Source: Solirubrobacterales bacterium (lineage in GTDB: Bacteria; Actinomycetota; Thermoleophilia; Solirubrobacterales; 70-9). Taken from it: a stretch of DNA of 52,736 nucleotides. Made by a program: the position numbers and the translations under genes. Position 1 is the first letter of the stretch. Every line of letters starts with the position of its first letter. Shown here in pieces: positions 2,981-42,785 of this stretch. The stretch lies in NCBI GenBank assembly GCA_036376775.1, contig DASUZP010000032.1:1-52736 (forward strand), given 5' to 3'. Under the pieces are notes generated by a model that had not been told where the DNA came from, made no database searches, and was given only the letters and a program-made list of their open reading frames with translations.

Positions 2981-3025
2981 TCCGGTGCGCTTTATGTGTC
3001 CCACAGGCACATAAAGCGCACCGGA
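2981..3025. repeat. H-family 45-nt palindromic hairpin, copy H2
   Basis: TCCGGTGCGCTTTATGTGTCCCACAGGCACATAAAGCGCACCGGA has a perfect 18-bp stem and begins 6 nt after the DUF559 stop. Its reverse complement matches H1 at 41/45 positions (hand count). Confidence 0.85.
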
Positions 3026-6207: not shown

Positions 6208-6230
6208 CTTTGGATCGTAATGCTGCGGGA

Positions 6231-6343
6231 GGGAGGATGGGGCATCCCTCCGCTTGCTGGGTTTTCGCCACCAGCGCCGGAAGCTCTTGCTGACCGTAGG
6301 GGCGAAAACGGACGCCGCGCACTCCGGGATGCCCCATCCTCCC
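6231..6343 (+). repeat. F1-family structured repeat, copy A
   Basis: The outer stem is a perfect 18 bp, GGGAGGATGGGGCATCCC / GGGATGCCCCATCCTCCC. The conserved interior is TCCGCTTGCTGGGTTTTCGCC ... GGCGAAAACGGACGCCGCGCACTCC. Confidence 0.85.
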
Positions 6344-6443
6344 CACCCCCAACGCCGCAGGGTGAACAAGCTCACTGGAAAGCTGGGTGCCCTTGCCTCC
6401 GCTTTGGTCTCAAGCGACATTCCCCGAGCTACGAAACCGGGGC

Positions 6444-6567
6444 GGGGATGACGTGGGGTGCCCCTGGAGTGCGCGGCGTCCTGTTTTTCGCCCCGCCAGC
6501 TTGGCGAGAGCTGATGAGTCCGAGGCGAAAAACCCAGCAAGCGGAAGGGGCACCCCACGTCATCCCC
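6444..6567 (-). repeat. F1-family structured repeat, copy B (inverted relative to A)
   Basis: The outer stem is a perfect 21 bp, GGGGATGACGTGGGGTGCCCC / GGGGCACCCCACGTCATCCCC. The interior is the reverse complement of the copy A core (GGAGTGCGCGGCGTCCTGTTTTTCGCC ... GGCGAAAAACCCAGCAAGCGGAA). It ends 10 nt from the hdeD-like stop. Confidence 0.85.
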
Positions 6568-6577
6568 TCAGCCCGGC

Positions 6578-7156
<579 letters not shown>

Positions 7157-15341: not shown

Positions 15342-15599
15342 ATGGCTCTAATGCTGCCGCTGGCCCTGCAGAAGATCGAAAATGAGTACCTGCTCTTCGG
15401 CGCCGCCGGACTGATCAGCCTGGTCGCCTTCGTCGCCCTGATCTTCGTTCCCGCGATCGGCTCCTACGGGCGCATCTGGGAGAAGGCGGCGGCGGGCTTC
15501 CTCTCGGTCATCGTCCTTGTAGCCCTCGTCTTAACGGGCGTCGTAGTGGGCCTTGCCATCGTCTACTACTACAACGACATCGTCGAAGTTATTGGTTGA
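15342..15599 (+). CDS. Hypothetical small two-TM membrane protein
   Basis: The ATG follows directly after the DedA-PAP2 stop, and the protein has two long hydrophobic helices. No family was recognised. Confidence 0.55.
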   Translation: MALMLPLALQKIENEYLLFGAAGLISLVAFVALIFVPAIGSYGRIWEKAAAGFLSVIVLVALVLTGVVVGLAIVYYYNDIVEVIG

Positions 15600-15711
15600 G
15601 GGCCTGTCCGGCAGGGCTTCCACTTAACTTTTTCGGTGGATCGCTTGTGGGCTGGCGCCCATAGCCCACACCGAAAAAGTACAAGACGTTCCAGCCCTAC
15701 CGGACAGGCCC
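15600..15711 (+). repeat. F2-family structured repeat, copy 1
   Basis: The outer stem GGGCCTGTCCGGCAGGGC / GCCCTACCGGACAGGCCC pairs at 17/18. The conserved interior is TTCCACTTAACTTTTTCGGTGGATCGC...CACCGAAAAAGTACAAGACGTTCCA. It begins 1 nt after the upstream stop and ends 29 nt before the PucR start. Confidence 0.9.
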
Positions 15712-15740
15712 TAAACGGAAGGCATCGCGATAATGAGCGA

Positions 15741-16979
15741 ATGTCCACCAGCGCGAAGGGGTCGAAAAGCCCTGCAAAAGCTGCTGATCCAGGGACCCTG
15801 GATGCGCTTGCGGAAGCTGTTGAATCGGGGGCTGGGTTGCCCGCCGTGGCGCGGGCTGCTGCGCGGGTGCTGGATGCCAGCGTTGCTCTGATCGAGCGGT
15901 CGGGGGCGGTGCTGGCGGTGGCGGGTGCTTCGCCGGATCAGGAGGAAAAGCTGCTGGCCGGGGGCGAGAAAGTGACCTCGGTCGAGCTGCGCGTCGCCGA
16001 TGCCGCCGTCGGTGAGCTGCGCTACCGGGCAAAAGCTCCGCCCGACCCGGCGATCGCTCGCATGGTGACGACGCTTCTGGCCTTGGAGCTGGAGCGCTCG
16101 CGGGCGCCGGACTGGCAGAACGAGGAGGTGGCCGGGGTCTTCGTCGCCGCACTGCTGGCGCGGCAGGTGACCGACCGCGGCGACATCGTCGCCCGTGCGG
16201 GCGAGCTCGGCACCAACCTGGAGAAGGGCGCCGGAGCGATCGTCCTGCGCGCCGCACCGCGCACGGCGCAGACGGGAGAGTGGCGCGGGCGGGTATTGAC
16301 CCTGGCGATGCGGACGCTGCGCTCGCTCGCCCCCGGCGCCCTGGCCGCGGCGGAAGAGGGCGAGGTGGCGACAGAGATCGCCGTGATCGTCCCCGCCGAG
16401 GACGAGGAGCGACTTCAGCGCGCCGCCGCCGGCCTGACCCGGGAGCTGGAGGACGTCCTGCCCGGCTTCCACCTGACGGTCGGCGCCAGCCGCCGTGTCG
16501 TCGATCCGGTCGACCTCTACCGGGCCGGCAGCGAGGCCCGGCTCGCGGTCAATGTCGGCGAGGCCGAGGGCAAGCCGTTGCTCTCCTTCGAGGAGACCGG
16601 CGCCTACCGCCTGTTGCTGCCGGCGATGAGCGAGGACCCCGGCGAGCTGCAGCGCTTCTTCGCCGAGACGATCGAGCCGCTCGCCGCCTACGACGACCAG
16701 TACGAGACCGAGCTCGTCGCCACCGTCGAGGCGTACCTCAACAACGACGGCAACGTCGCGGCCACCGCCAAACAGCTCTTCACCCATCGCCACACGATTC
16801 GCTACCGGCTCGAGCGCGTGCGCGAGCTCTGCGGCCACGACGTCTCCGCCACCGAGGGTCGCGAGAAGCTCGGCCTCGGCCTCAAGGCGATGCGCGTGCT
16901 GGGCATCGCCTCGCCGCGCGGGCCGGCGCAGGAACCGGGCGCGGAAGGCGGCAAGGTGCCGCGTGGCTCGGAGGAGTGA
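15741..16979 (+). CDS. PucR/CdaR-family transcriptional regulator
   Basis: The C-terminal PucR-type HTH is NGNVAATAKQLFTHRHTIRYRLERVRELCG. The internal ATG at 15741 was chosen because the listed ORF start at 15636 lies inside repeat copy 1. Confidence 0.8.
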   Translation: MSTSAKGSKSPAKAADPGTLDALAEAVESGAGLPAVARAAARVLDASVALIERSGAVLAVAGASPDQEEKLLAGGEKVTSVELRVADAAVGELRYRAKAPPDPAIARMVTTLLALELERSRAPDWQNEEVAGVFVAALLARQVTDRGDIVARAGELGTNLEKGAGAIVLRAAPRTAQTGEWRGRVLTLAMRTLRSLAPGALAAAEEGEVATEIAVIVPAEDEERLQRAAAGLTRELEDVLPGFHLTVGASRRVVDPVDLYRAGSEARLAVNVGEAEGKPLLSFEETGAYRLLLPAMSEDPGELQRFFAETIEPLAAYDDQYETELVATVEAYLNNDGNVAATAKQLFTHRHTIRYRLERVRELCGHDVSATEGREKLGLGLKAMRVLGIASPRGPAQEPGAEGGKVPRGSEE

Positions 16980-17096
16980 GGCCTGCCCCGGTAGGGGTTC
17001 CACTTAACTTTTTGGATGGATCGCCCTTGGGGCTGACGCCCGGTCGCCGGTGACCAAAAAGTACAAGACGTTCCACCCCTACCGGGGCAGGCCTCA
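16977..17096 (+). repeat. F2-family structured repeat, copy 2
   Basis: The outer stem is a perfect 21 bp, TGAGGCCTGCCCCGGTAGGGG / CCCCTACCGGGGCAGGCCTCA. It includes the stop codons of both convergent genes (TGA 16977-16979 on plus, TGA 17096-17094 on minus). The core is the same as in copies 1 and 3. Confidence 0.9.
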
Positions 17097-19412
17097 AGCT
17101 CCGATGCGTTCGCGAGAGCTGCCCTGGGATGGGTGAGGCTTGAGGCGAACCGGGGCCGCGGAGATGGCTTGGACCCTGAGGTCGCTCCAGGTGAGGCCCT
17201 CGCGTACTAGGGCTGGGAGGCCGAGGGCTACGGCGGTGGCGATCTCTACCGCCTGCAAGATGACGCCGTAGGCGAGTGCGTCTGCCGTGCTTATGCCCCA
17301 GCCGGTGTGCAGGACGCTGATCACGGCGAGCTGGAAGACGCCGATGTTGGATGGCGTCGCCGGCACGACCGCGGTCACGTTGACGGCGAAGAGGACCGCG
17401 GCAGCGGCGCCGATGCCGGCATCGCCGAGGCCGAGCGCAGCCAACAGCGCCCAGCAGGCGGCGAGCTGGATAGCCCAGGCGCCGAGCTGTGCGGCGCCGG
17501 CGACGGCGCCATAGCGAGGCTGCCGGAACACCGCCAGGCCCGCCCGCACCTGCAGCAGAGCGCGATGCAGCGCAGCTCCGATCCGGGCAAAGCGGCCATT
17601 GCCGTTGCGCCGCATCAACACCGGGCCGATCAGGACGACGAGCAGCAGGGCGAGCGGCACGAAGCTGAAGACGAACAGCTTCTCGGTGCTGGAGTGAAAG
17701 AGGTCCGTGCTGGAGACGATGATCGTCCCGAGCAGGGCCAGGGCGACGATGTTGAGCACGGTCTGCGAGACCAGCGTCCCCAACAAGACGGGGAAGGTCT
17801 CACGCATGCGGCCGATGCGCCGGGCGAGGGTCATCGCCCGCGCCGGCTCGCCGAGGCGGGCGGGCAGCGTCGCCGACATCAGGACGCCGATCATCGTCGC
17901 CGAGGTGACGTCGCGGCGCCGAACCGGGCGGTTCGGCAGGGCCGCACGCACGATCGCGTACCAGGACGCCGCGCGGAAGAAGAGCGACAGCGCCATCAGC
18001 GCACAGGCGACCAGAACCCAGGTGAAGTCGGAGCGGACGATGCTGGAGATCACCTTGTCGACGCCGATCTTCTGCGCCGCCAGCGCCGTGAGCCCGATGC
18101 CGAGCACGCCGGCAATCCCGAGGCCCAGCCGGCGGGCGACGCGGCGCTTGCGGCTGCCGCTCCGGGCGAGGGGCGGGTCGAGCGAAGGCAGCCGTCGCGG
18201 CGGGCTCAGGCGGCCGCCGTCAGCAGGTCGGATACCGGCCCAGTGGGCGGCGCGTTCGATCGCACTCGACGGCGCCGGCGCCTCGATCGCCCGCTCATAG
18301 ACCTGGCTGACCCGGTCGGCGACGCGCGGCCAGGCGTAGCCCTCGGCGCTCTGCCGCGCCGCCGTGCCCATCGCCGCGAGGCGCTCGGGCTCATGGTGAG
18401 CGCGCTGCAACTCCTCGGCGAGGCGCTGCGGGTCCCCGGGTGGGACGAGGATGCCGTCAAGCCCATCCGTGACGACATCGCTGTAGCCGGCGATGGCGGA
18501 GGCGATCACCGGGGTTCCGGCGGCGAAAGCCTCGGTGAGGACCATGCCGAAGCTCTCACCGGAGAGCGAAGGGGCGCAGAGCAGGTCGGCCTGATGGAGC
18601 GCCGTCCACAAGCTCTCACCCGAGACACGGCCGCGGACATCGATCCAGCGCATCGCCTCGGGATCCGCGAGATAGCGCAGCACGTCCTCGCGCTCGGCGC
18701 CGATCACAGTGAGGCGGCTGGGCACGTGCTCGACCAGCGCTTCAAAGGCGGTCAGCAGGACCGGAAGCCCCTTGCGCTCCTCCGGGCGGCCGACAAACAG
18801 CACCCGCAACTCCCCGCTCGGCGGCTTGGGACCAGACGGGGCGGCGTCGATGTCGACACCGTTCGGCACAACCTCGTAGCGGCCCCCGTACCAGCGGCGA
18901 CCCGTCCAGGCGGCCGCCTCGGAGACGGCGATCCGGGCGGAGAGTCGGTTCAACACTCGCCTGGCACCCAGCGCAGAGGCAATGTGGTTGGAGATCGCCT
19001 TGGTCGAGTAGGCGTGGAAGGTTCCGACCGCGGGCGCGCGCGTCCCAAGTGCCGCATTCCAGCCGACCAGCGGTACCACCGGCTCGTGGATGTGGACCAC
19101 GTCGTAGGCGCCCTGGCGAAGCTCGCGACGGGGAGCGACAACGCCGCCAGCCGGGAAGGGGGCCAGATTGGAGACCGCGCCATTGGCGGAGAACCCCGCC
19201 GTGCGGCCCAGCGGCACCAGATAATCGGGGATCTCGCGGGGCTCCGGGGGCGCACGGTGAAGCGCCCGGCTGAGCCGATCCGGGGGATCGAAGGGAGCGA
19301 GCACACGCACGTGGTGGCCGCGACCGAGAAACTCCTCGGCAAGCGACTCGACGTGCCGGTTCACGCCGCCCTGGTAGCTCCAGGAATATGGCGAGACTAG
19401 GGCGATTCGCAC
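17094..19412 (-). CDS. Fusion of GT4 (PimA-like) glycosyltransferase and UPF0104/lysyl-PG-synthase-type flippase-like TM domain
   Basis: The N-terminus MRIALVSPYSWSYQGGVNRHVESLAEEFLGRGHHVRVLAP and the ...SLSGESFGMVLTEAFAAGTPVIAS E-x7-E region indicate GT4. The C-terminal ~330 aa are multi-pass hydrophobic with the flippase-like pattern. Confidence 0.8.
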   Translation of the reverse strand: MRIALVSPYSWSYQGGVNRHVESLAEEFLGRGHHVRVLAPFDPPDRLSRALHRAPPEPREIPDYLVPLGRTAGFSANGAVSNLAPFPAGGVVAPRRELRQGAYDVVHIHEPVVPLVGWNAALGTRAPAVGTFHAYSTKAISNHIASALGARRVLNRLSARIAVSEAAAWTGRRWYGGRYEVVPNGVDIDAAPSGPKPPSGELRVLFVGRPEERKGLPVLLTAFEALVEHVPSRLTVIGAEREDVLRYLADPEAMRWIDVRGRVSGESLWTALHQADLLCAPSLSGESFGMVLTEAFAAGTPVIASAIAGYSDVVTDGLDGILVPPGDPQRLAEELQRAHHEPERLAAMGTAARQSAEGYAWPRVADRVSQVYERAIEAPAPSSAIERAAHWAGIRPADGGRLSPPRRLPSLDPPLARSGSRKRRVARRLGLGIAGVLGIGLTALAAQKIGVDKVISSIVRSDFTWVLVACALMALSLFFRAASWYAIVRAALPNRPVRRRDVTSATMIGVLMSATLPARLGEPARAMTLARRIGRMRETFPVLLGTLVSQTVLNIVALALLGTIIVSSTDLFHSSTEKLFVFSFVPLALLLVVLIGPVLMRRNGNGRFARIGAALHRALLQVRAGLAVFRQPRYGAVAGAAQLGAWAIQLAACWALLAALGLGDAGIGAAAAVLFAVNVTAVVPATPSNIGVFQLAVISVLHTGWGISTADALAYGVILQAVEIATAVALGLPALVREGLTWSDLRVQAISAAPVRLKPHPSQGSSRERIGA

Positions 19413-22641: not shown

Positions 22642-24048
22642 ATGACCCAGATCGGAACCGAAGAGAACCCCGTCCGCGTCGCGATCGTCGGCGCCGGCCC
22701 GTCCGGCTTCTACGCCGCCGAGCACATCCTCAAAGATGCCGACACGCACGCCCAGGTCGACCTCTTCGACCGCCTCCCCACCCCCTTCGGCCTGGTTCGC
22801 GGCGGGGTCGCTCCGGATCATCCGAAGATCAAGTCGGTGATCCGCGTCTACGAGAAAACCGCCGCGCGCGAGGGCTTCCGCTTCTTCGGCAACGTCAAGG
22901 TCGGCCACGACGTCGAGGTCGAGGACCTCGAGCGGCTCTACCACGCGATCGTCTTCACGGTCGGCTGCGAGACCGACCGCCGGCTCGGCATCCCCGGCGA
23001 GGAGCTGCCCGGCAGCCACGCCGCCACCTCCTTCGTCGGCTGGTACAACGCCCACCCCGACTACTGCGACGAGGAGTTCGACCTCTCCGGCGAGCGGGCG
23101 GTGGTGATCGGCAACGGCAACGTGGCGATGGACGTCGCCCGGATGCTCGCTCTGACTGACCACGAGCTGCGCCAGACCGACACCGCAGACCATGCGATCG
23201 AGCTGCTCGACCGCAAGCAGATCCGCGAGATCGTCGTGCTGGGGCGCCGCGGGCCGGTGCAGGCCGCCTTCACCAACCCCGAGATCAAGGAGCTCGGCGA
23301 GATGGAGGACGCCGACGTGATCGTCGATCCCGCTGAGGTCGAGCTCGACCCGGCGAGCACCGCCTTCCTCGAGTCCGACGAGGCCGATAAGACGACCCGG
23401 GTCAATGTCGAGACGTTGCGCGAGTTCTCCCAGCGCCGGCCCGAGGGCAAGAAGCAGCGGATCGTGCTGCGCTTCCTCGCCTCGCCGGTCGAGATCAAGG
23501 GCGAGGGCAAGGTCGAATCGATCGTCGTCGGCCGCAACGAACTGGTCGAGGACGGCGGCAGCCTGCGGGCCAAGGACAGCGGCGAGCGCGAAGAGCTCGA
23601 GTGCGGCCTGGTGCTGCGCTCGGTCGGCTACACCGGCATCCCGATCGAGGGCGTCCCCTTCGACGAGAAGCGCGGCCTGATCCTCAACGAGGGCGGTCGC
23701 GTGCTCGACTCGCACGACTCCGGCCACAAGGTCGGCCACTACACCGCGGGCTGGATCAAGCGCGGTCCCTCCGGCGTGATCGGCACCAACAAGAAAGACG
23801 CGCTGGAGACCGTCCAGCACCTGCTTGCCGACGTCGGCTCGCAGACCCTGCTCGACCCGTCAAACCCCGAGCCCTCAGCCGTCGACGACCTGCTCTCGGA
23901 GCGTGGCATCCGCTTCGTCAGCTTCGAGGACTGGCAGGCGATCGACCAGGCAGAGGTCGGCCGCGGCGAGCCCCACGGCCGCCCCCGGGTCAAGTTCGTC
24001 CGGGTCGACGAGATGCTCGAGACGCTGGGCGAGCAGGTCTCTGGCTGA
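22642..24048 (+). CDS. FprA-type NADPH:ferredoxin (adrenodoxin-type) reductase
   Basis: VAIVGAGPSGFYAAEHIL is the FAD GxGxxG motif and AVVIGNGNVAMDVARML is the NADP site. Both the length and WIKRGPSGVIGTNK match the mycobacterial FprA pattern. Confidence 0.85.
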   Translation: MTQIGTEENPVRVAIVGAGPSGFYAAEHILKDADTHAQVDLFDRLPTPFGLVRGGVAPDHPKIKSVIRVYEKTAAREGFRFFGNVKVGHDVEVEDLERLYHAIVFTVGCETDRRLGIPGEELPGSHAATSFVGWYNAHPDYCDEEFDLSGERAVVIGNGNVAMDVARMLALTDHELRQTDTADHAIELLDRKQIREIVVLGRRGPVQAAFTNPEIKELGEMEDADVIVDPAEVELDPASTAFLESDEADKTTRVNVETLREFSQRRPEGKKQRIVLRFLASPVEIKGEGKVESIVVGRNELVEDGGSLRAKDSGEREELECGLVLRSVGYTGIPIEGVPFDEKRGLILNEGGRVLDSHDSGHKVGHYTAGWIKRGPSGVIGTNKKDALETVQHLLADVGSQTLLDPSNPEPSAVDDLLSERGIRFVSFEDWQAIDQAEVGRGEPHGRPRVKFVRVDEMLETLGEQVSG

Positions 24049-24056
24049 GCCCTGCT

Positions 24057-24179
24057 TCAACGGGACATCCGGGTAGGGGTTCCACTTAACTTTTTGGGTG
24101 GATCGCCTTGATGCTGACGCCCGACTGGCGGTGACCAAAAAGTACAAGACGTTTCACCCCTACCCGGATGTCCCGTTGA
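24057..24179 (+). repeat. F2-family structured repeat, copy 3
   Basis: The outer stem is a perfect 23 bp, TCAACGGGACATCCGGGTAGGGG / CCCCTACCCGGATGTCCCGTTGA. The core is about 90% identical to copy 2 by eye. The right arm encodes the last ~6 codons and the TAG stop of the minus-strand hydrolase. Confidence 0.9.
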
Positions 24180-25059
24180 TGAGGACTCGGTTTAGGAAGC
24201 TGGCCTGGTCGGCAGCTACTTGGTTGAAGATTGCGTTGTCGAAGGGGGCGAAGTGGCCGCCTGGGTATTCGCGCAGCTCGCCGCGGGGGGCGCGTTGCGC
24301 GGCTCTTCTGCCGAGCTTGGGCGGGTTGACGTCGTCGTCTTCGAAGACGCAGTAGAGGGACGGGCAGGAAATCCGGTGCACCTTTCTCGAAAGGCTGTAT
24401 GGGGGCGCCAGGGCGACGCGAGCGCAGACCTCGTTGCGCCAGGTCGAGTCCGGCGGGGTGATCGCCGTGAAGCCGGGAACCGCATCGGGGCTGTTGATGA
24501 CCGCGAGGGAGCCTGGCTCCCCGGCCACCGGTATCCGGTACGGAGCGGCTCCGCGCAGCCTTCGGGCCATGTCGCGGCCGCCCGCCACGGTCAGCCTGGC
24601 GACGTGTCCCGGACCGCCGATATGAAGAAGACTGCTCCTCCCGCTGAGCAGGGGCGCAACGCAGATCAACGCCCCGACCTCGACGCCGTCGGCCGCCAGG
24701 GCCTGGATGTGCCCCGTCCCCATCGAGTAGCTCCACATCGCGACCCGGGTGGGGTCGACCTGATCGAGGGTGCCAGCACAGGCGAGGGCACCCCGCCAGT
24801 CCTCGCGCTGACGAGCAGGATCCATCAGCAAGCGAGGCTCGCCAGGACTCTCGCCCCAGTGTCGGTAGTCGAAGGCAAGCGCCGCGAACCCGGCCTCGGC
24901 GAGGTGCTCGGCGAACGCGTCGAGCCCCTGGTCTCGCACGCAGGAAAAGCCCGAGCCCATGGCAACGCAGGGGACGGGCCCGGTCGCGGCTCGCGGCCGG
25001 AACAGCCGGCCGACGCACTCCCCGTCGCCGGCTGCAAAGCGCACCTCCTCCGATCCCAT
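24160..25059 (-). CDS. Alpha/beta-fold hydrolase
   Basis: VAMGSGFSCVRDQGLDAFAEHLAEAGFAALAFDYRHWGES and the nucleophile elbow MWSYSMG. The C-terminal INGTSG and the stop lie in repeat copy 3. Confidence 0.75.
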   Translation of the reverse strand: MGSEEVRFAAGDGECVGRLFRPRAATGPVPCVAMGSGFSCVRDQGLDAFAEHLAEAGFAALAFDYRHWGESPGEPRLLMDPARQREDWRGALACAGTLDQVDPTRVAMWSYSMGTGHIQALAADGVEVGALICVAPLLSGRSSLLHIGGPGHVARLTVAGGRDMARRLRGAAPYRIPVAGEPGSLAVINSPDAVPGFTAITPPDSTWRNEVCARVALAPPYSLSRKVHRISCPSLYCVFEDDDVNPPKLGRRAAQRAPRGELREYPGGHFAPFDNAIFNQVAADQASFLNRVLINGTSG

Positions 25060-39902: not shown

Positions 39903-41120
39903 GTGGCGACCGCGACGACGAACGGCTCCAAAGTCATCAAGCCCGACCACGAGACGGGCGGCAAACACTTCATCTTCAGCCAGGAGCACGAAGACCTGCG
40001 CGAGTCGATGCAGTCATGGGTGCGCAAGGAGCTCTGGCCCCATCGCAACGAGTGGGAGGACACCTACTGGCCGACCGAGAAGATGAAGCGAGCGGGAGAG
40101 CTCGGCTTCCTCGGCCTCTGCTTCCCCGAGGAGTACGGCGGCCAGGGCGGCGACTACTTCTACTCGCTGGTCCGCGCCGAATGCATGAGCTACTCGGGCT
40201 CGGGCGGCACCAACATGGGCTTTGCGGTGCAGACCGACATGGTGCTGCCGCCGATCCACCTGCTCGGCAACGAGGAGCAGAAGCAGCGCTACCTCGCGCC
40301 GGGGCTGATGGGCGAGAAGATCGGCTGCCTGGGGATCACCGAGCCGGGCGCCGGCTCCGACGTCGCCGGCATCCGCACTACGGCTATCCGCGACGGCGAC
40401 GAATACGTGATCAACGGCTCCAAGACCTTCATCACCAACGGTCCGCGCGCCGACTTCATCGTCCTCGTCGCCAAGACCGACCCGGAGGAGCGCCACGCCG
40501 GCATCACCCTGTTCGTCGTCGACCTGCGCGACGAGAAAGGCGAGCACGTGCCCGGCTTCACCGTCTCCGCCGAGCTGGAGAAGATGGGCATGCACGCCTC
40601 CGACACCGGCGAGCTGGCCTTCGAAGACGTCCGCGTGCCGGCCGACGCGGTGCTCGGCGAGGTCGGCAAGGGCTTCTACCACATCGCCTGGGAGCTCCAG
40701 GGCGAGCGCCTGGTCGCCGCCGCCGGCTGCCACGCGGGGGCGGAGCGGATGATCGAGAAGACGCTCGAGTACGCCAAGGAGCGCGAGGCCTTCGGCCGCC
40801 CGATCGGCAAGTTCCAGGCGATCCGCCACAAGTTCGCCGAGATGGCGACCAAGACCGAGGCGGCGAAGCAGTTCACCTACGCGACCGCCTGGCGCTTCGC
40901 CAACGGCGAGTACCCGGTGCGGGAGATCACGATGGCGAAGCTCTTCGCCTCACGGATCGCCTGCGAGGTCGCCGACGACTGCGTGCAGATCCTCGGCGGC
41001 TACGGCTACATGAAGGAGTACGAGATCGAGCGCGCCTACCGCGACGTCCGCCTCAACCGCATCGGCGCCGGCACCGACGAGGTGATGCTCGACGTGATCG
41101 GCCGCAGCTACGGCCTGTAG
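39903..41120 (+). CDS. Acyl-CoA dehydrogenase
   Basis: GCLGITEPGAGSDVAGIRTTA...NGSKTFITNG...IQILGGYGYMKEYEIERAYRD. The start is GTG, preceded by a strong RBS. Confidence 0.9.
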   Translation: MATATTNGSKVIKPDHETGGKHFIFSQEHEDLRESMQSWVRKELWPHRNEWEDTYWPTEKMKRAGELGFLGLCFPEEYGGQGGDYFYSLVRAECMSYSGSGGTNMGFAVQTDMVLPPIHLLGNEEQKQRYLAPGLMGEKIGCLGITEPGAGSDVAGIRTTAIRDGDEYVINGSKTFITNGPRADFIVLVAKTDPEERHAGITLFVVDLRDEKGEHVPGFTVSAELEKMGMHASDTGELAFEDVRVPADAVLGEVGKGFYHIAWELQGERLVAAAGCHAGAERMIEKTLEYAKEREAFGRPIGKFQAIRHKFAEMATKTEAAKQFTYATAWRFANGEYPVREITMAKLFASRIACEVADDCVQILGGYGYMKEYEIERAYRDVRLNRIGAGTDEVMLDVIGRSYGL

Positions 41121-41610: not shown

Positions 41611-42785
41611 CAGTCGTCAAGGACACGGGTGCGCGCGCCACCCTCCCGCCTTTCGGCGAGGAGCACGAGGAGCTGCGCGAGACCGTCAGTCGCTTCGTCA
41701 AGAAGGAGATCGCGCCGAACGTCGACGGGTGGGAGGCGGCGCGCGAATTCCCCCGCGAGCTCTACGGTCGCTGCGCCGAGCTCGGCTTCCTCGGGCTGAA
41801 GTTCCCGGAGGAGTACGGCGGCCAGGGCGGCACCCACCTGCACGACGCGATCTGGGTCGAAGAGCTGGCCCGCTCCGGCGGCTCCGGCGGGGTTGCCGCC
41901 GGGCTCAACGCCCACACCTCGATCGCGATGCCGCCGATCTTCAACTTCGGCACCGAGGAGCAGAAGCAGCGTTGGCTCGTGCCGGGGATCGCCGGCGAGA
42001 AGATCGGCGCCCTGGGGATCACCGAGCCGGGCGCCGGCTCCGACGTCGCCGGAATCTCGACCAACGCCCAGCGGGTCGACGGCGGCTACGTCGTCAACGG
42101 CTCCAAGACCTTCATCACCAATGGCGTCCGCGCCGACTTCCTCGTCTGTGCCTGCAAGACGACCCAGGACGGCGGCCACCACGGCATCTCCTTCCTCGTG
42201 CTCGAGCGCGAGATGCCCGGCTACGAGGTGGCGCAGAAGCTGGAGAAGATGGGCTGGCACTCGTCCGACACGGGCGAGCTGGCCTTCACCGACGTCGAGG
42301 TGCCGGAGGAGAACCTGCTCGGCGAGGAAAACGAGGGCTTCAAACTGATCATGTTCAACTTCGCCTGGGAGCGGCTACTGATGGCGATCGGCGCGGTCGG
42401 CGCGATGCAGCGCCTGATCGATGTCACGGTCGCCTACGCCCTCGACCGCGAAGCCTTCGGCCGCCCGATCGGCAAGTTCCAGGCAATCCGCCATCACGTC
42501 GCCGAGATGGCGACCAAGGCCGAGGCCGCCCGTGCCCTCACCTACAACGCCCTGCGCCTCTTCCACGAGGGCCACGACTGCATCAAGGACGTGACGATGG
42601 CCAAGCTGGTCACCCAGCGCGCCGTCCTGGAGATCGCCGACCAGTCCCTTCAGATCCACGGCGGCTACGGCTACATGCGCGAGTACGGCATAGAGCGAGC
42701 CGTCCGCGACGCCCGCCTGGGCCCGATAGGCGGCGGCACCGACGAGGTGATGAAGGAGATCCTCGGCAAATTGATGGGGCTGTAG
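41607..42785 (+). CDS. Acyl-CoA dehydrogenase (paralog of 39903..41120)
   Basis: GALGITEPGAGSDVAGISTNA...NGSKTFITNG...LQIHGGYGYMREYGIERAVRD. The TTG start overlaps the upstream stop. Confidence 0.88.
   Translation: MTVVKDTGARATLPPFGEEHEELRETVSRFVKKEIAPNVDGWEAAREFPRELYGRCAELGFLGLKFPEEYGGQGGTHLHDAIWVEELARSGGSGGVAAGLNAHTSIAMPPIFNFGTEEQKQRWLVPGIAGEKIGALGITEPGAGSDVAGISTNAQRVDGGYVVNGSKTFITNGVRADFLVCACKTTQDGGHHGISFLVLEREMPGYEVAQKLEKMGWHSSDTGELAFTDVEVPEENLLGEENEGFKLIMFNFAWERLLMAIGAVGAMQRLIDVTVAYALDREAFGRPIGKFQAIRHHVAEMATKAEAARALTYNALRLFHEGHDCIKDVTMAKLVTQRAVLEIADQSLQIHGGYGYMREYGIERAVRDARLGPIGGGTDEVMKEILGKLMGL

Follow-up and report, generated by a model that had tools for sequence, protein, structure and literature searches.

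F2, a previously undescribed family of structured hairpin repeats at gene ends in uncultured Solirubrobacterales

Here we describe F2, a family of non-coding hairpin repeats identified in a 52,736-nt stretch of a Solirubrobacterales genome (contig DASUZP010000032.1 of assembly GCA_036376775.1, positions 1 to 52,736; hereafter the window), where two of its three copies lie on either side of a PucR-family regulator gene. Searching the literature for the taxon and for stretches of the sequence brought up nothing relevant on the family, Rfam 15 gave no match in the window at gathering thresholds and none overlapping the F2 cores at E-values up to 10, and F2 is a previously undescribed family found across uncultured Solirubrobacterales (Thermoleophilia). 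On balance, we favour reading it as a REP/ERIC-like family of structured extragenic repeats of ~115 nt at gene ends, whose core would be recognised by the host and whose hairpin would guard mRNA 3′ ends. An earlier, sequence-only reading of this DNA had singled out the two copies around the regulator gene as a structured repeat, which our census bears out through many copies, preserved pairing and non-random placement; it had also tied these copies to the expression and mobility of the gene, a proposal that fared less well and is taken up below.

The three copies in the window share one orientation and each forms a hairpin repeat of ~115 nt (15600-15711, 16977-17096 and 24059-24177). Their two core blocks are specific to them: TTCCACTTAACTTTTT occurs exactly three times in the 52.7-kb window, on the + strand only (at 15618, 16998 and 24080), and AAAAAGTACAAGACGTTCCA likewise three times on the + strand only (at 15674, 17056 and 24137, the last with one mismatch), with 0.00-0.03 matches expected by chance in dinucleotide-preserving shuffles. 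In copy 1, the left arm (15600-15617) is followed by the first invariant block (15618-15633), a variable centre (15634-15673), the second invariant block (15674-15693) and the right arm (15694-15711). A15599, which belongs to the stop codon of the upstream gene, pairs with T15712, and the whole hairpin thus spans 15599..15712 on the - strand, the strand whose folding is apparently under selection. Read off the sequence, the outer arms pair at 17/18 positions in copy 1 (GGGCCTGTCCGGCAGGGC / GCCCTACCGGACAGGCCC) and at 21/21 in copy 2 (TGAGGCCTGCCCCGGTAGGGG / CCCCTACCGGGGCAGGCCTCA), in agreement with the sequence-only reading, whose coordinates and sequences for these two copies also stand. All three copies fold well above dinucleotide shuffles (z -4.7 to -10.8), and in each the more stable strand is the reverse complement.

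Beyond the window, we scanned species-representative genomes with the pattern ACTTAACTTTTT-N25-55-AAAAAGTACAAGA. Among the matches listed, F2 occupies at least 118 loci in ~75 assemblies, nearly all of them metagenome-assembled genomes (MAGs) of uncultured Solirubrobacterales/Thermoleophilia with chromosomes of ~2.5-3 Mb, and individual genomes carry several copies, with up to five sampled loci. A profile search with nhmmer over the ~0.9 Mb fetched added just about nine copies to the exact-core ones, seven of which share two linked core substitutions (CCGCTTAAC ... GACGCTCC) while two are truncated. As the profile adds so few, the core is close to invariant, even though the scan itself demanded 25 exact bases. 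A scan of viral contigs gave 0 matches. Two degenerate remnants were seen (L101:3093-3131 and L052:3803-3856), one internally deleted so that the left core is fused straight to the right core (CTTAACTTTTTCGGTACAAGACGCTCC), the other consisting of the left half only. Two F2-bearing loci (L046 and L116) come from a MAG labelled Chloroflexota (JBLMYD01); synteny of its PucR locus with the Solirubrobacterales loci points to a bin that is mislabelled or contaminated, and not to a wider host range.

Among the copies sampled per genome, pairs within a genome are 77% identical and pairs between genomes 75%, the within-genome maximum being 88%, and only 6/83 copies have their nearest F2 neighbour in their own genome. 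No master sequence dominating F2 within genomes was found among these copies. Since sharing a genome does not make copies more alike, turnover appears slow, with no sign of recent bursts or of concerted evolution.

The structure of F2 shows strong covariation. When pairs were counted outward from the core in 122 copies anchored on it, the outer stem proved to be 20 bp long, with every position 74-100% Watson-Crick and 18/20 positions at 89% or more. Many of these positions hold all four pair types (position 14: CG 42, GC 36, TA 25, AT 14), and it is the outermost ~10 bp that vary most. A structure alignment of 130 copies in reverse-complement orientation, with its consensus fold computed by RNAalifold, contains 35 pairs, and at 22 of these double compensatory changes were seen. 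In this structure 97.4% of cells are paired, as against 81.6% in column shuffles, 637 cells are changed on both sides, as against 149, and the covariation score is 0.419 versus 0.122, a value reached by 0/500 shuffles; sliding the partner by 1-3 columns lowered pairing to 35-59%. The inner T-run/A-run helix, whose covariation had been noted between the window copies, covaries across the whole family (columns 44/92: CG 99, UA 17, GC 11; columns 45/91: GC 92, UA 20, CG 16).

The folding strand, which is the complement of the window + strand, reads 5′-arm-UGGAACGUCUUGUACUUUUU-[variable ~40 nt]-AAAAAGUUAAGUGGAA-arm-3′. From the base upward it comprises the 20-bp GC-rich outer stem, a small purine-rich internal loop (GGAA/GA), a helix of ~15 bp and the tip. 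In the outer stem the sequence is free and the pairing maintained, and the core is essentially invariant and asymmetric. The ~15-bp helix is built from CG, CUUG/UAAG, AC/GU, U5/A5 and two covarying pairs; two G.U pairs in it are conserved and two U residues are bulged. The tip (~35 nt) is variable and falls into several subtypes; no family-wide fold was found for it, just a semi-conserved GGCGUCAGC / CGGACGGCC motif, and in isolation this centre folds slightly better on the strand opposite to the folding strand. A subfamily co-variation (CCGC../..GCTCC) is fitted equally well by an in-register A-U pair and, in the register of RNAalifold, by the replacement of G.U with G-C.

Pairing is also strand-specific. 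Across the inner nine stem positions, the + orientation shows 45 C.A-type mismatches (C.A or A.C) and 0 G.T, so that G.U wobbles arise on the complementary strand only. On that folding strand, two further G.U pairs are kept in 130/130 and 123/130 copies, and in 109/130 copies folding energy is lower for the complement strand. The wobble bias is present in every gene context, whichever direction the neighbours run, from which it follows that intramolecular pairing of one strand is under selection and is not set by neighbouring transcription. The orientation of F2 relative to local GC skew gives a weak signal (68:50).

The placement of F2 is also non-random. Junctions with clear calls comprised 52 convergent (55%), 41 co-directional (24 + 17 by orientation) and 2 divergent (2%) cases, compared with 20/63/17% for background gene junctions in the same loci (chi-square p=5e-17). 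Most copies flank unrelated housekeeping genes, and presence varies between species at orthologous sites. Stop codons lie 1-4 nt from the stem ends in ~40% of flanks, and some genes (~15 upstream, ~12 downstream) run into F2 and end at its conserved TAG or TAA. These two triplets, within GGTAGGG and CTTAAC / GTTAAG respectively, close two of the three frames on either strand, which upholds the view that the element is non-coding. The window illustrates both kinds of gene end. Copy 2 (16977..17096, - strand, 21-bp outer stem) is wedged exactly between the PucR gene and a convergent GT4 glycosyltransferase / LPG_synthase_TM gene (17094..19412, -), whose stop codon lies in the right arm; both TGA codons (PucR, 16977-16979, +; glycosyltransferase, 17094-17096, -) form the last stem pairs. 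Copy 3 (24059..24177, -) lies between convergent oxidoreductase (22642-24048, +) and alpha/beta-hydrolase (24160-25059, -) genes, and the hydrolase gene terminates at a TAG within the right arm, which encodes its last codons. An ortholog of copy 3 is present in L075, and nhmmer found no further copy in L077.

Several features associated with mobile elements or transcription signals were sought around F2. There was no target-site duplication, flanking direct repeats of 2-4 nt occurring at chance (9 vs 7.5, 2 vs 1.5 and 0 vs 0.5), and no conserved motif outside the 20-bp stem, composition returning to background past position 20; a target-site duplication or a TNA target was accordingly rejected. 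No recurrent transposase-like gene was found among 794 neighbouring open reading frames (ORFs), and no RAYT (Y1 HUH) gene was seen among these or the scanned ORFs of the window. Taken with the lack of viral matches, these results argue that F2 is no mobile element of the classical type. As a source of the variable arms, insertion into terminator hairpins already in place was also considered and set aside, as the empty orthologous sites (L039 and L046) contain no hairpin. A consensus scan for promoters and terminators flagged nothing in the F2 elements; a U5 run precedes the inner hairpin and an A5 run follows it, on both strands.

Set beside known systems, F2 fails at least one tested defining feature of each of REP/REPIN, MITE, attC, intrinsic terminators and any Rfam family. 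ERIC elements (IRU), found in Enterobacteria and Vibrio, are imperfect palindromes of ~120 nt that lie in transcribed intergenic regions in either orientation; their sequence is highly conserved across species while their chromosomal sites differ, and they are thought to work as RNA hairpins influencing mRNA stability. To our knowledge, they have no transposase. F2 resembles that family in size, palindromic form, occurrence in both orientations, variable sites and lack of a known transposase, but it has a hypervariable, compensated outer stem where ERIC is conserved throughout, and sequences and hosts are unrelated. There is also a likeness to the REP, BIME and REPIN elements of Proteobacteria, whose RAYT protein is TnpA_REP: these too form hairpins that occur in many extragenic copies, either at the 3′ end of a gene or where two genes converge, with strand-specific recognition of a folded single strand, compensated stems and a conserved GTAG, and they share with F2 the lack of target-site duplications, long persistence and vertical inheritance (PMC3116915, PMC8266576). 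Unlike REP, a palindrome of 20-40 nt or an inverted doublet, F2 is one hairpin of ~115 nt with an invariant asymmetric core; its arms are not themselves palindromes, its GTAG lies mid-way in the 20-bp stem and not 5′ of the palindrome, no abundant master sequence of the REPIN kind was seen among the copies sampled within genomes, and the hosts are Actinomycetota. Miniature inverted-repeat transposable elements (MITEs; Correia, RUP, BOX) are likewise small non-coding foldback repeats able to give neighbours stop codons and alter their ends, but in F2 neither a target-site duplication nor conserved terminal inverted-repeat tips are present, and we saw no related insertion sequence. Integron attC sites are imperfect palindromes of similar length, conserved by structure more than by sequence, with one-strand folding, conserved bulges, a position just after ORFs and uniform local orientation; F2, in contrast, is scattered among housekeeping genes, at loci that are syntenic across many species, with no cassette arrays and no integrase nearby, and its R-box-like ACTTAAC is internal and faces an arm reading GTACAAG, with no complementary GTTRRRY partner.

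Taken together, the data fit long-lived hairpins at gene ends whose effect on their neighbours ranges from neutral to mildly beneficial and whose gain and loss are slow. Under the REP/ERIC-like reading that we favour, the invariant core would be the recognition site of a trans-acting host factor, and F2, transcribed within neighbouring mRNAs, would delimit and protect their 3′ ends as REP and ERIC do. Locally, F2 would most likely act at mRNA 3′ ends, as a long GC-rich hairpin that protects or insulates them. New copies would arise rarely and without target-site duplication. Copies often take flanking stop codons as their last stem pairs, or else provide the gene with a TAG or TAA from within the element.

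Several points weigh against this reading. The RNA role of F2 is one that we infer. The wobble bias is not explained by a passive model in which F2 is simply the 3′ untranslated region (UTR) of a neighbouring gene: it persists (14 vs 3) in the 24 copies with both neighbours on the other strand, and it fits strand-specific recognition of single-stranded DNA (ssDNA) or independent or antisense transcription. About half of the wobble asymmetry stems from one stem position. F2 is not a canonical terminator because, unlike a Rho-independent one, its GC-rich hairpin is not immediately followed by a U-tract. As to the data, the census behind the at least 118 loci is biased by its demand for 25 exact core bases, the shuffle controls treat copies as unrelated, and gene contexts are heuristic, with coding strand and frame called by the GC periodicity of codon positions in flanks of 240 nt and not from annotation.

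The strand-specific wobble keeps two other explanations alive, a REP-RAYT-like ssDNA mechanism and an independent structured RNA. According to the former, which is possible but in our view rather unlikely, F2 would be a non-autonomous mobile ssDNA hairpin of the REPIN or IS200/IS605 style, whose core is read on one strand by a single-copy HUH/RAYT-like transposase or a tyrosine recombinase encoded elsewhere, with any effects on mRNA a by-product. Pairing that is strand-specific and independent of flanking gene orientation would be expected of such an element, as would arms overlapping the ends of coding regions, the conserved GTAG that the folding strand carries in its 5′ arm and the absence of target-site duplication. 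It would also account for presence and absence at orthologous sites and for different subtypes at the same site (the window and L011 versus L006 and L058). REP is recognised as the single-stranded REP and not as its inverse, and REPIN hairpins often carry compensatory changes (PMC8266576, PMC3116915), which speaks for this mechanism as well. What counts against it is that neither a master sequence nor recent within-genome copies were seen, that orientation is only weakly tied to local GC skew and that no HUH or other transposase gene was seen in ~0.9 Mb of F2 flanks; moreover, F2 is not made of two inverted short REPs, and its arm tips are its least conserved part. The latter explanation, in which each copy is an independently transcribed small RNA, be it a regulatory one or a new self-cleaving or protein-scaffold RNA with the invariant asymmetric core as its active or binding site, we consider improbable. 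An invariant core between freely covarying helices, conserved G.U pairs and bulges, strand specificity irrespective of neighbouring genes and the retention of F2 core motifs in a sister family in the same window (see below) would all suit a functional RNA. Set against these are the lack of promoter-like sequence in or upstream of F2 and of any similarity in Rfam, coding sequence that reaches right up to the stem, and presence that differs among close relatives. A more speculative idea, which we hold to be unlikely, is that the core represents a new class of recognised element, either the substrate of a domesticated ssDNA enzyme (an actinobacterial counterpart of REP-RAYT or attC-IntI) or a new catalytic or protein-scaffold RNA, with the sister family pointing to a wider superfamily.

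The remaining alternative concerns the PucR gene itself (15741..16979, +). Its assignment was confirmed by the Pfam domains HTH_30, the C-terminal helix-turn-helix of PucR (E=8.7e-21), and GGDEF_2 (E=3e-9), both past curated cut-offs. The sequence-only reading held that the two F2 copies and PucR form a functional unit, in which copy 1 must carry or gate the promoter or 5′ UTR of the gene and PucR is a recombination-excisable cassette. The layout does invite this idea, as copy 1 stops 29 nt short of the ATG, both copies have the same orientation, an integron cassette is arranged in a similar way and ACTTAAC matches RYYYAAC, the inverse-core pattern of attC. The orthologous loci are nevertheless difficult to reconcile with it. 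The succession of VTT/PAP2, a small ORF and PucR was found in six other species (PucR orthologs in L011, L006, L007, L039, L046 and L058). In the window the small ORF (15342..15599, +; 85 aa, no Pfam match, conserved in the six other loci) has a stop codon that abuts F2 copy 1, and F2 lies between the small ORF and PucR here and in L011, L006 and L058. In L039 and L046, which lack F2 there, the small-ORF stop is followed by 5-7 nt and then by the same GATAATG...ATG. The -10-like hexamer GATAAT (15729..15734, +), recognised by sequence comparison 6 nt upstream of the conserved PucR ATG, is thus retained in orthologs with or without the upstream element. A sigma-70 consensus scan found no promoter at this hexamer; in Actinobacteria, the -10 rule is ANNNT, with A at position 2 and T at position 6. 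Because the F2-less L039 and L046 keep both GATAAT and the same ATG, we place the promoter -10 in the 29-nt spacer: GATAAT is most likely the -10 of the gene's own promoter, with no dependence on copy 1, which would lie upstream of it and be dispensable. From this spacing and the actinobacterial rule, the PucR mRNA is probably leaderless.

The excisable cassette finds no better footing. L011, L006 and L058 have the upstream copy only, L007 the downstream copy only, and L039 and L046 neither, so that the window alone among the seven orthologous PucR loci has both; no relative with a solo F2 and PucR missing was found among these seven. The longest identical runs that copies 1 and 2 share measure 16 and 20 nt, less than the identity of about 25 nt that efficient RecA recombination usually needs. 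The RYYYAAC match lies inside the hairpin and not at its base, its opposite-arm partner is not GTTRRRY, and most family members stand beside unrelated housekeeping genes. We regard the comparative data as having largely refuted the unit, which is very improbable. The position of F2 around PucR instead looks incidental, with independent family members at the two ends of the gene, and for PucR itself the repeats would be largely neutral, as neighbours and not part of its regulation.

The same loci illustrate how F2 varies at one site. Upstream of PucR, the central subtype of L006 and L058 differs from that of the window and L011, and between the latter two the arms differ by several compensated pairs while the PucR proteins are 93% identical. 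Downstream, F2 occurs only together with the PucR/glycosyltransferase junction, which the window and L007 alone have; the other loci carry a tRNA gene or other DNA after PucR. Synteny breaks right after PucR, with an opposite-strand tRNA gene in L006, L039 and L046 and, in L011 (7005-7100), an unrelated arrangement that includes a small hairpin (CCCCGCGGGG), and F2 copies may mark rearrangement junctions. In L007 (3700-3720), the small-ORF stop overlaps a shortened PucR as ATGA, and F2, GATAAT and ~25 N-terminal codons are missing, which looks like a deletion that took away F2 together with the N-terminus of PucR.

Conserved structured repeat families were not previously known from small, streamlined (~2.5 Mb) uncultured soil Actinomycetota, and F2 combines an order-wide distribution and very clean covariation with a core whose invariance implies a specific partner. 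It may therefore serve as a handle on how these organisms end and protect transcripts without canonical terminators, on the search for a REP-RAYT-like domesticated system outside Proteobacteria, and for marking lineages and synteny breakpoints in MAGs.

The window also holds probable relatives of F2. A covariance model built from the 130 copies and run over the window recovered the three F2 copies and no other match at that level; it also gave a full-length match of 35.8 bits at 6443..6568 (+) and a second of 18.1 bits at 6226-6348 (-). Both units share UGGA..GCGUCCUG..UUUUUCG / CGAAAAA..AAGCGGAA with F2, and they probably constitute a sister family, which suggests a wider F2 superfamily. Together they lie in a ~360-nt near-perfect foldback of two inverted ~125-nt units (6215-6580; minimum free energy -217 kcal/mol, z -8.6), for which Rfam returned no match. 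Elsewhere, two 45-nt hairpins (TCCGGTGCGC...GCGCACCGGA) at 2022-2066 and 2981-3025, presumably the family F1, are mutually 91% complementary with the loop inverted. They flank an ORF (2037-2975, +) with AbiEi_4 and DUF559/REase_MTES_1575 domains, a gene type that is often multi-copy, which is thus a second single gene bracketed by structured repeats. Finally, tandem duplicated coding segments at 40230-41100 and 41913-42770 are 73-83% identical at a distance of 1665-1683 nt, share a 40-nt block of 98% identity and are likely paralogous genes.

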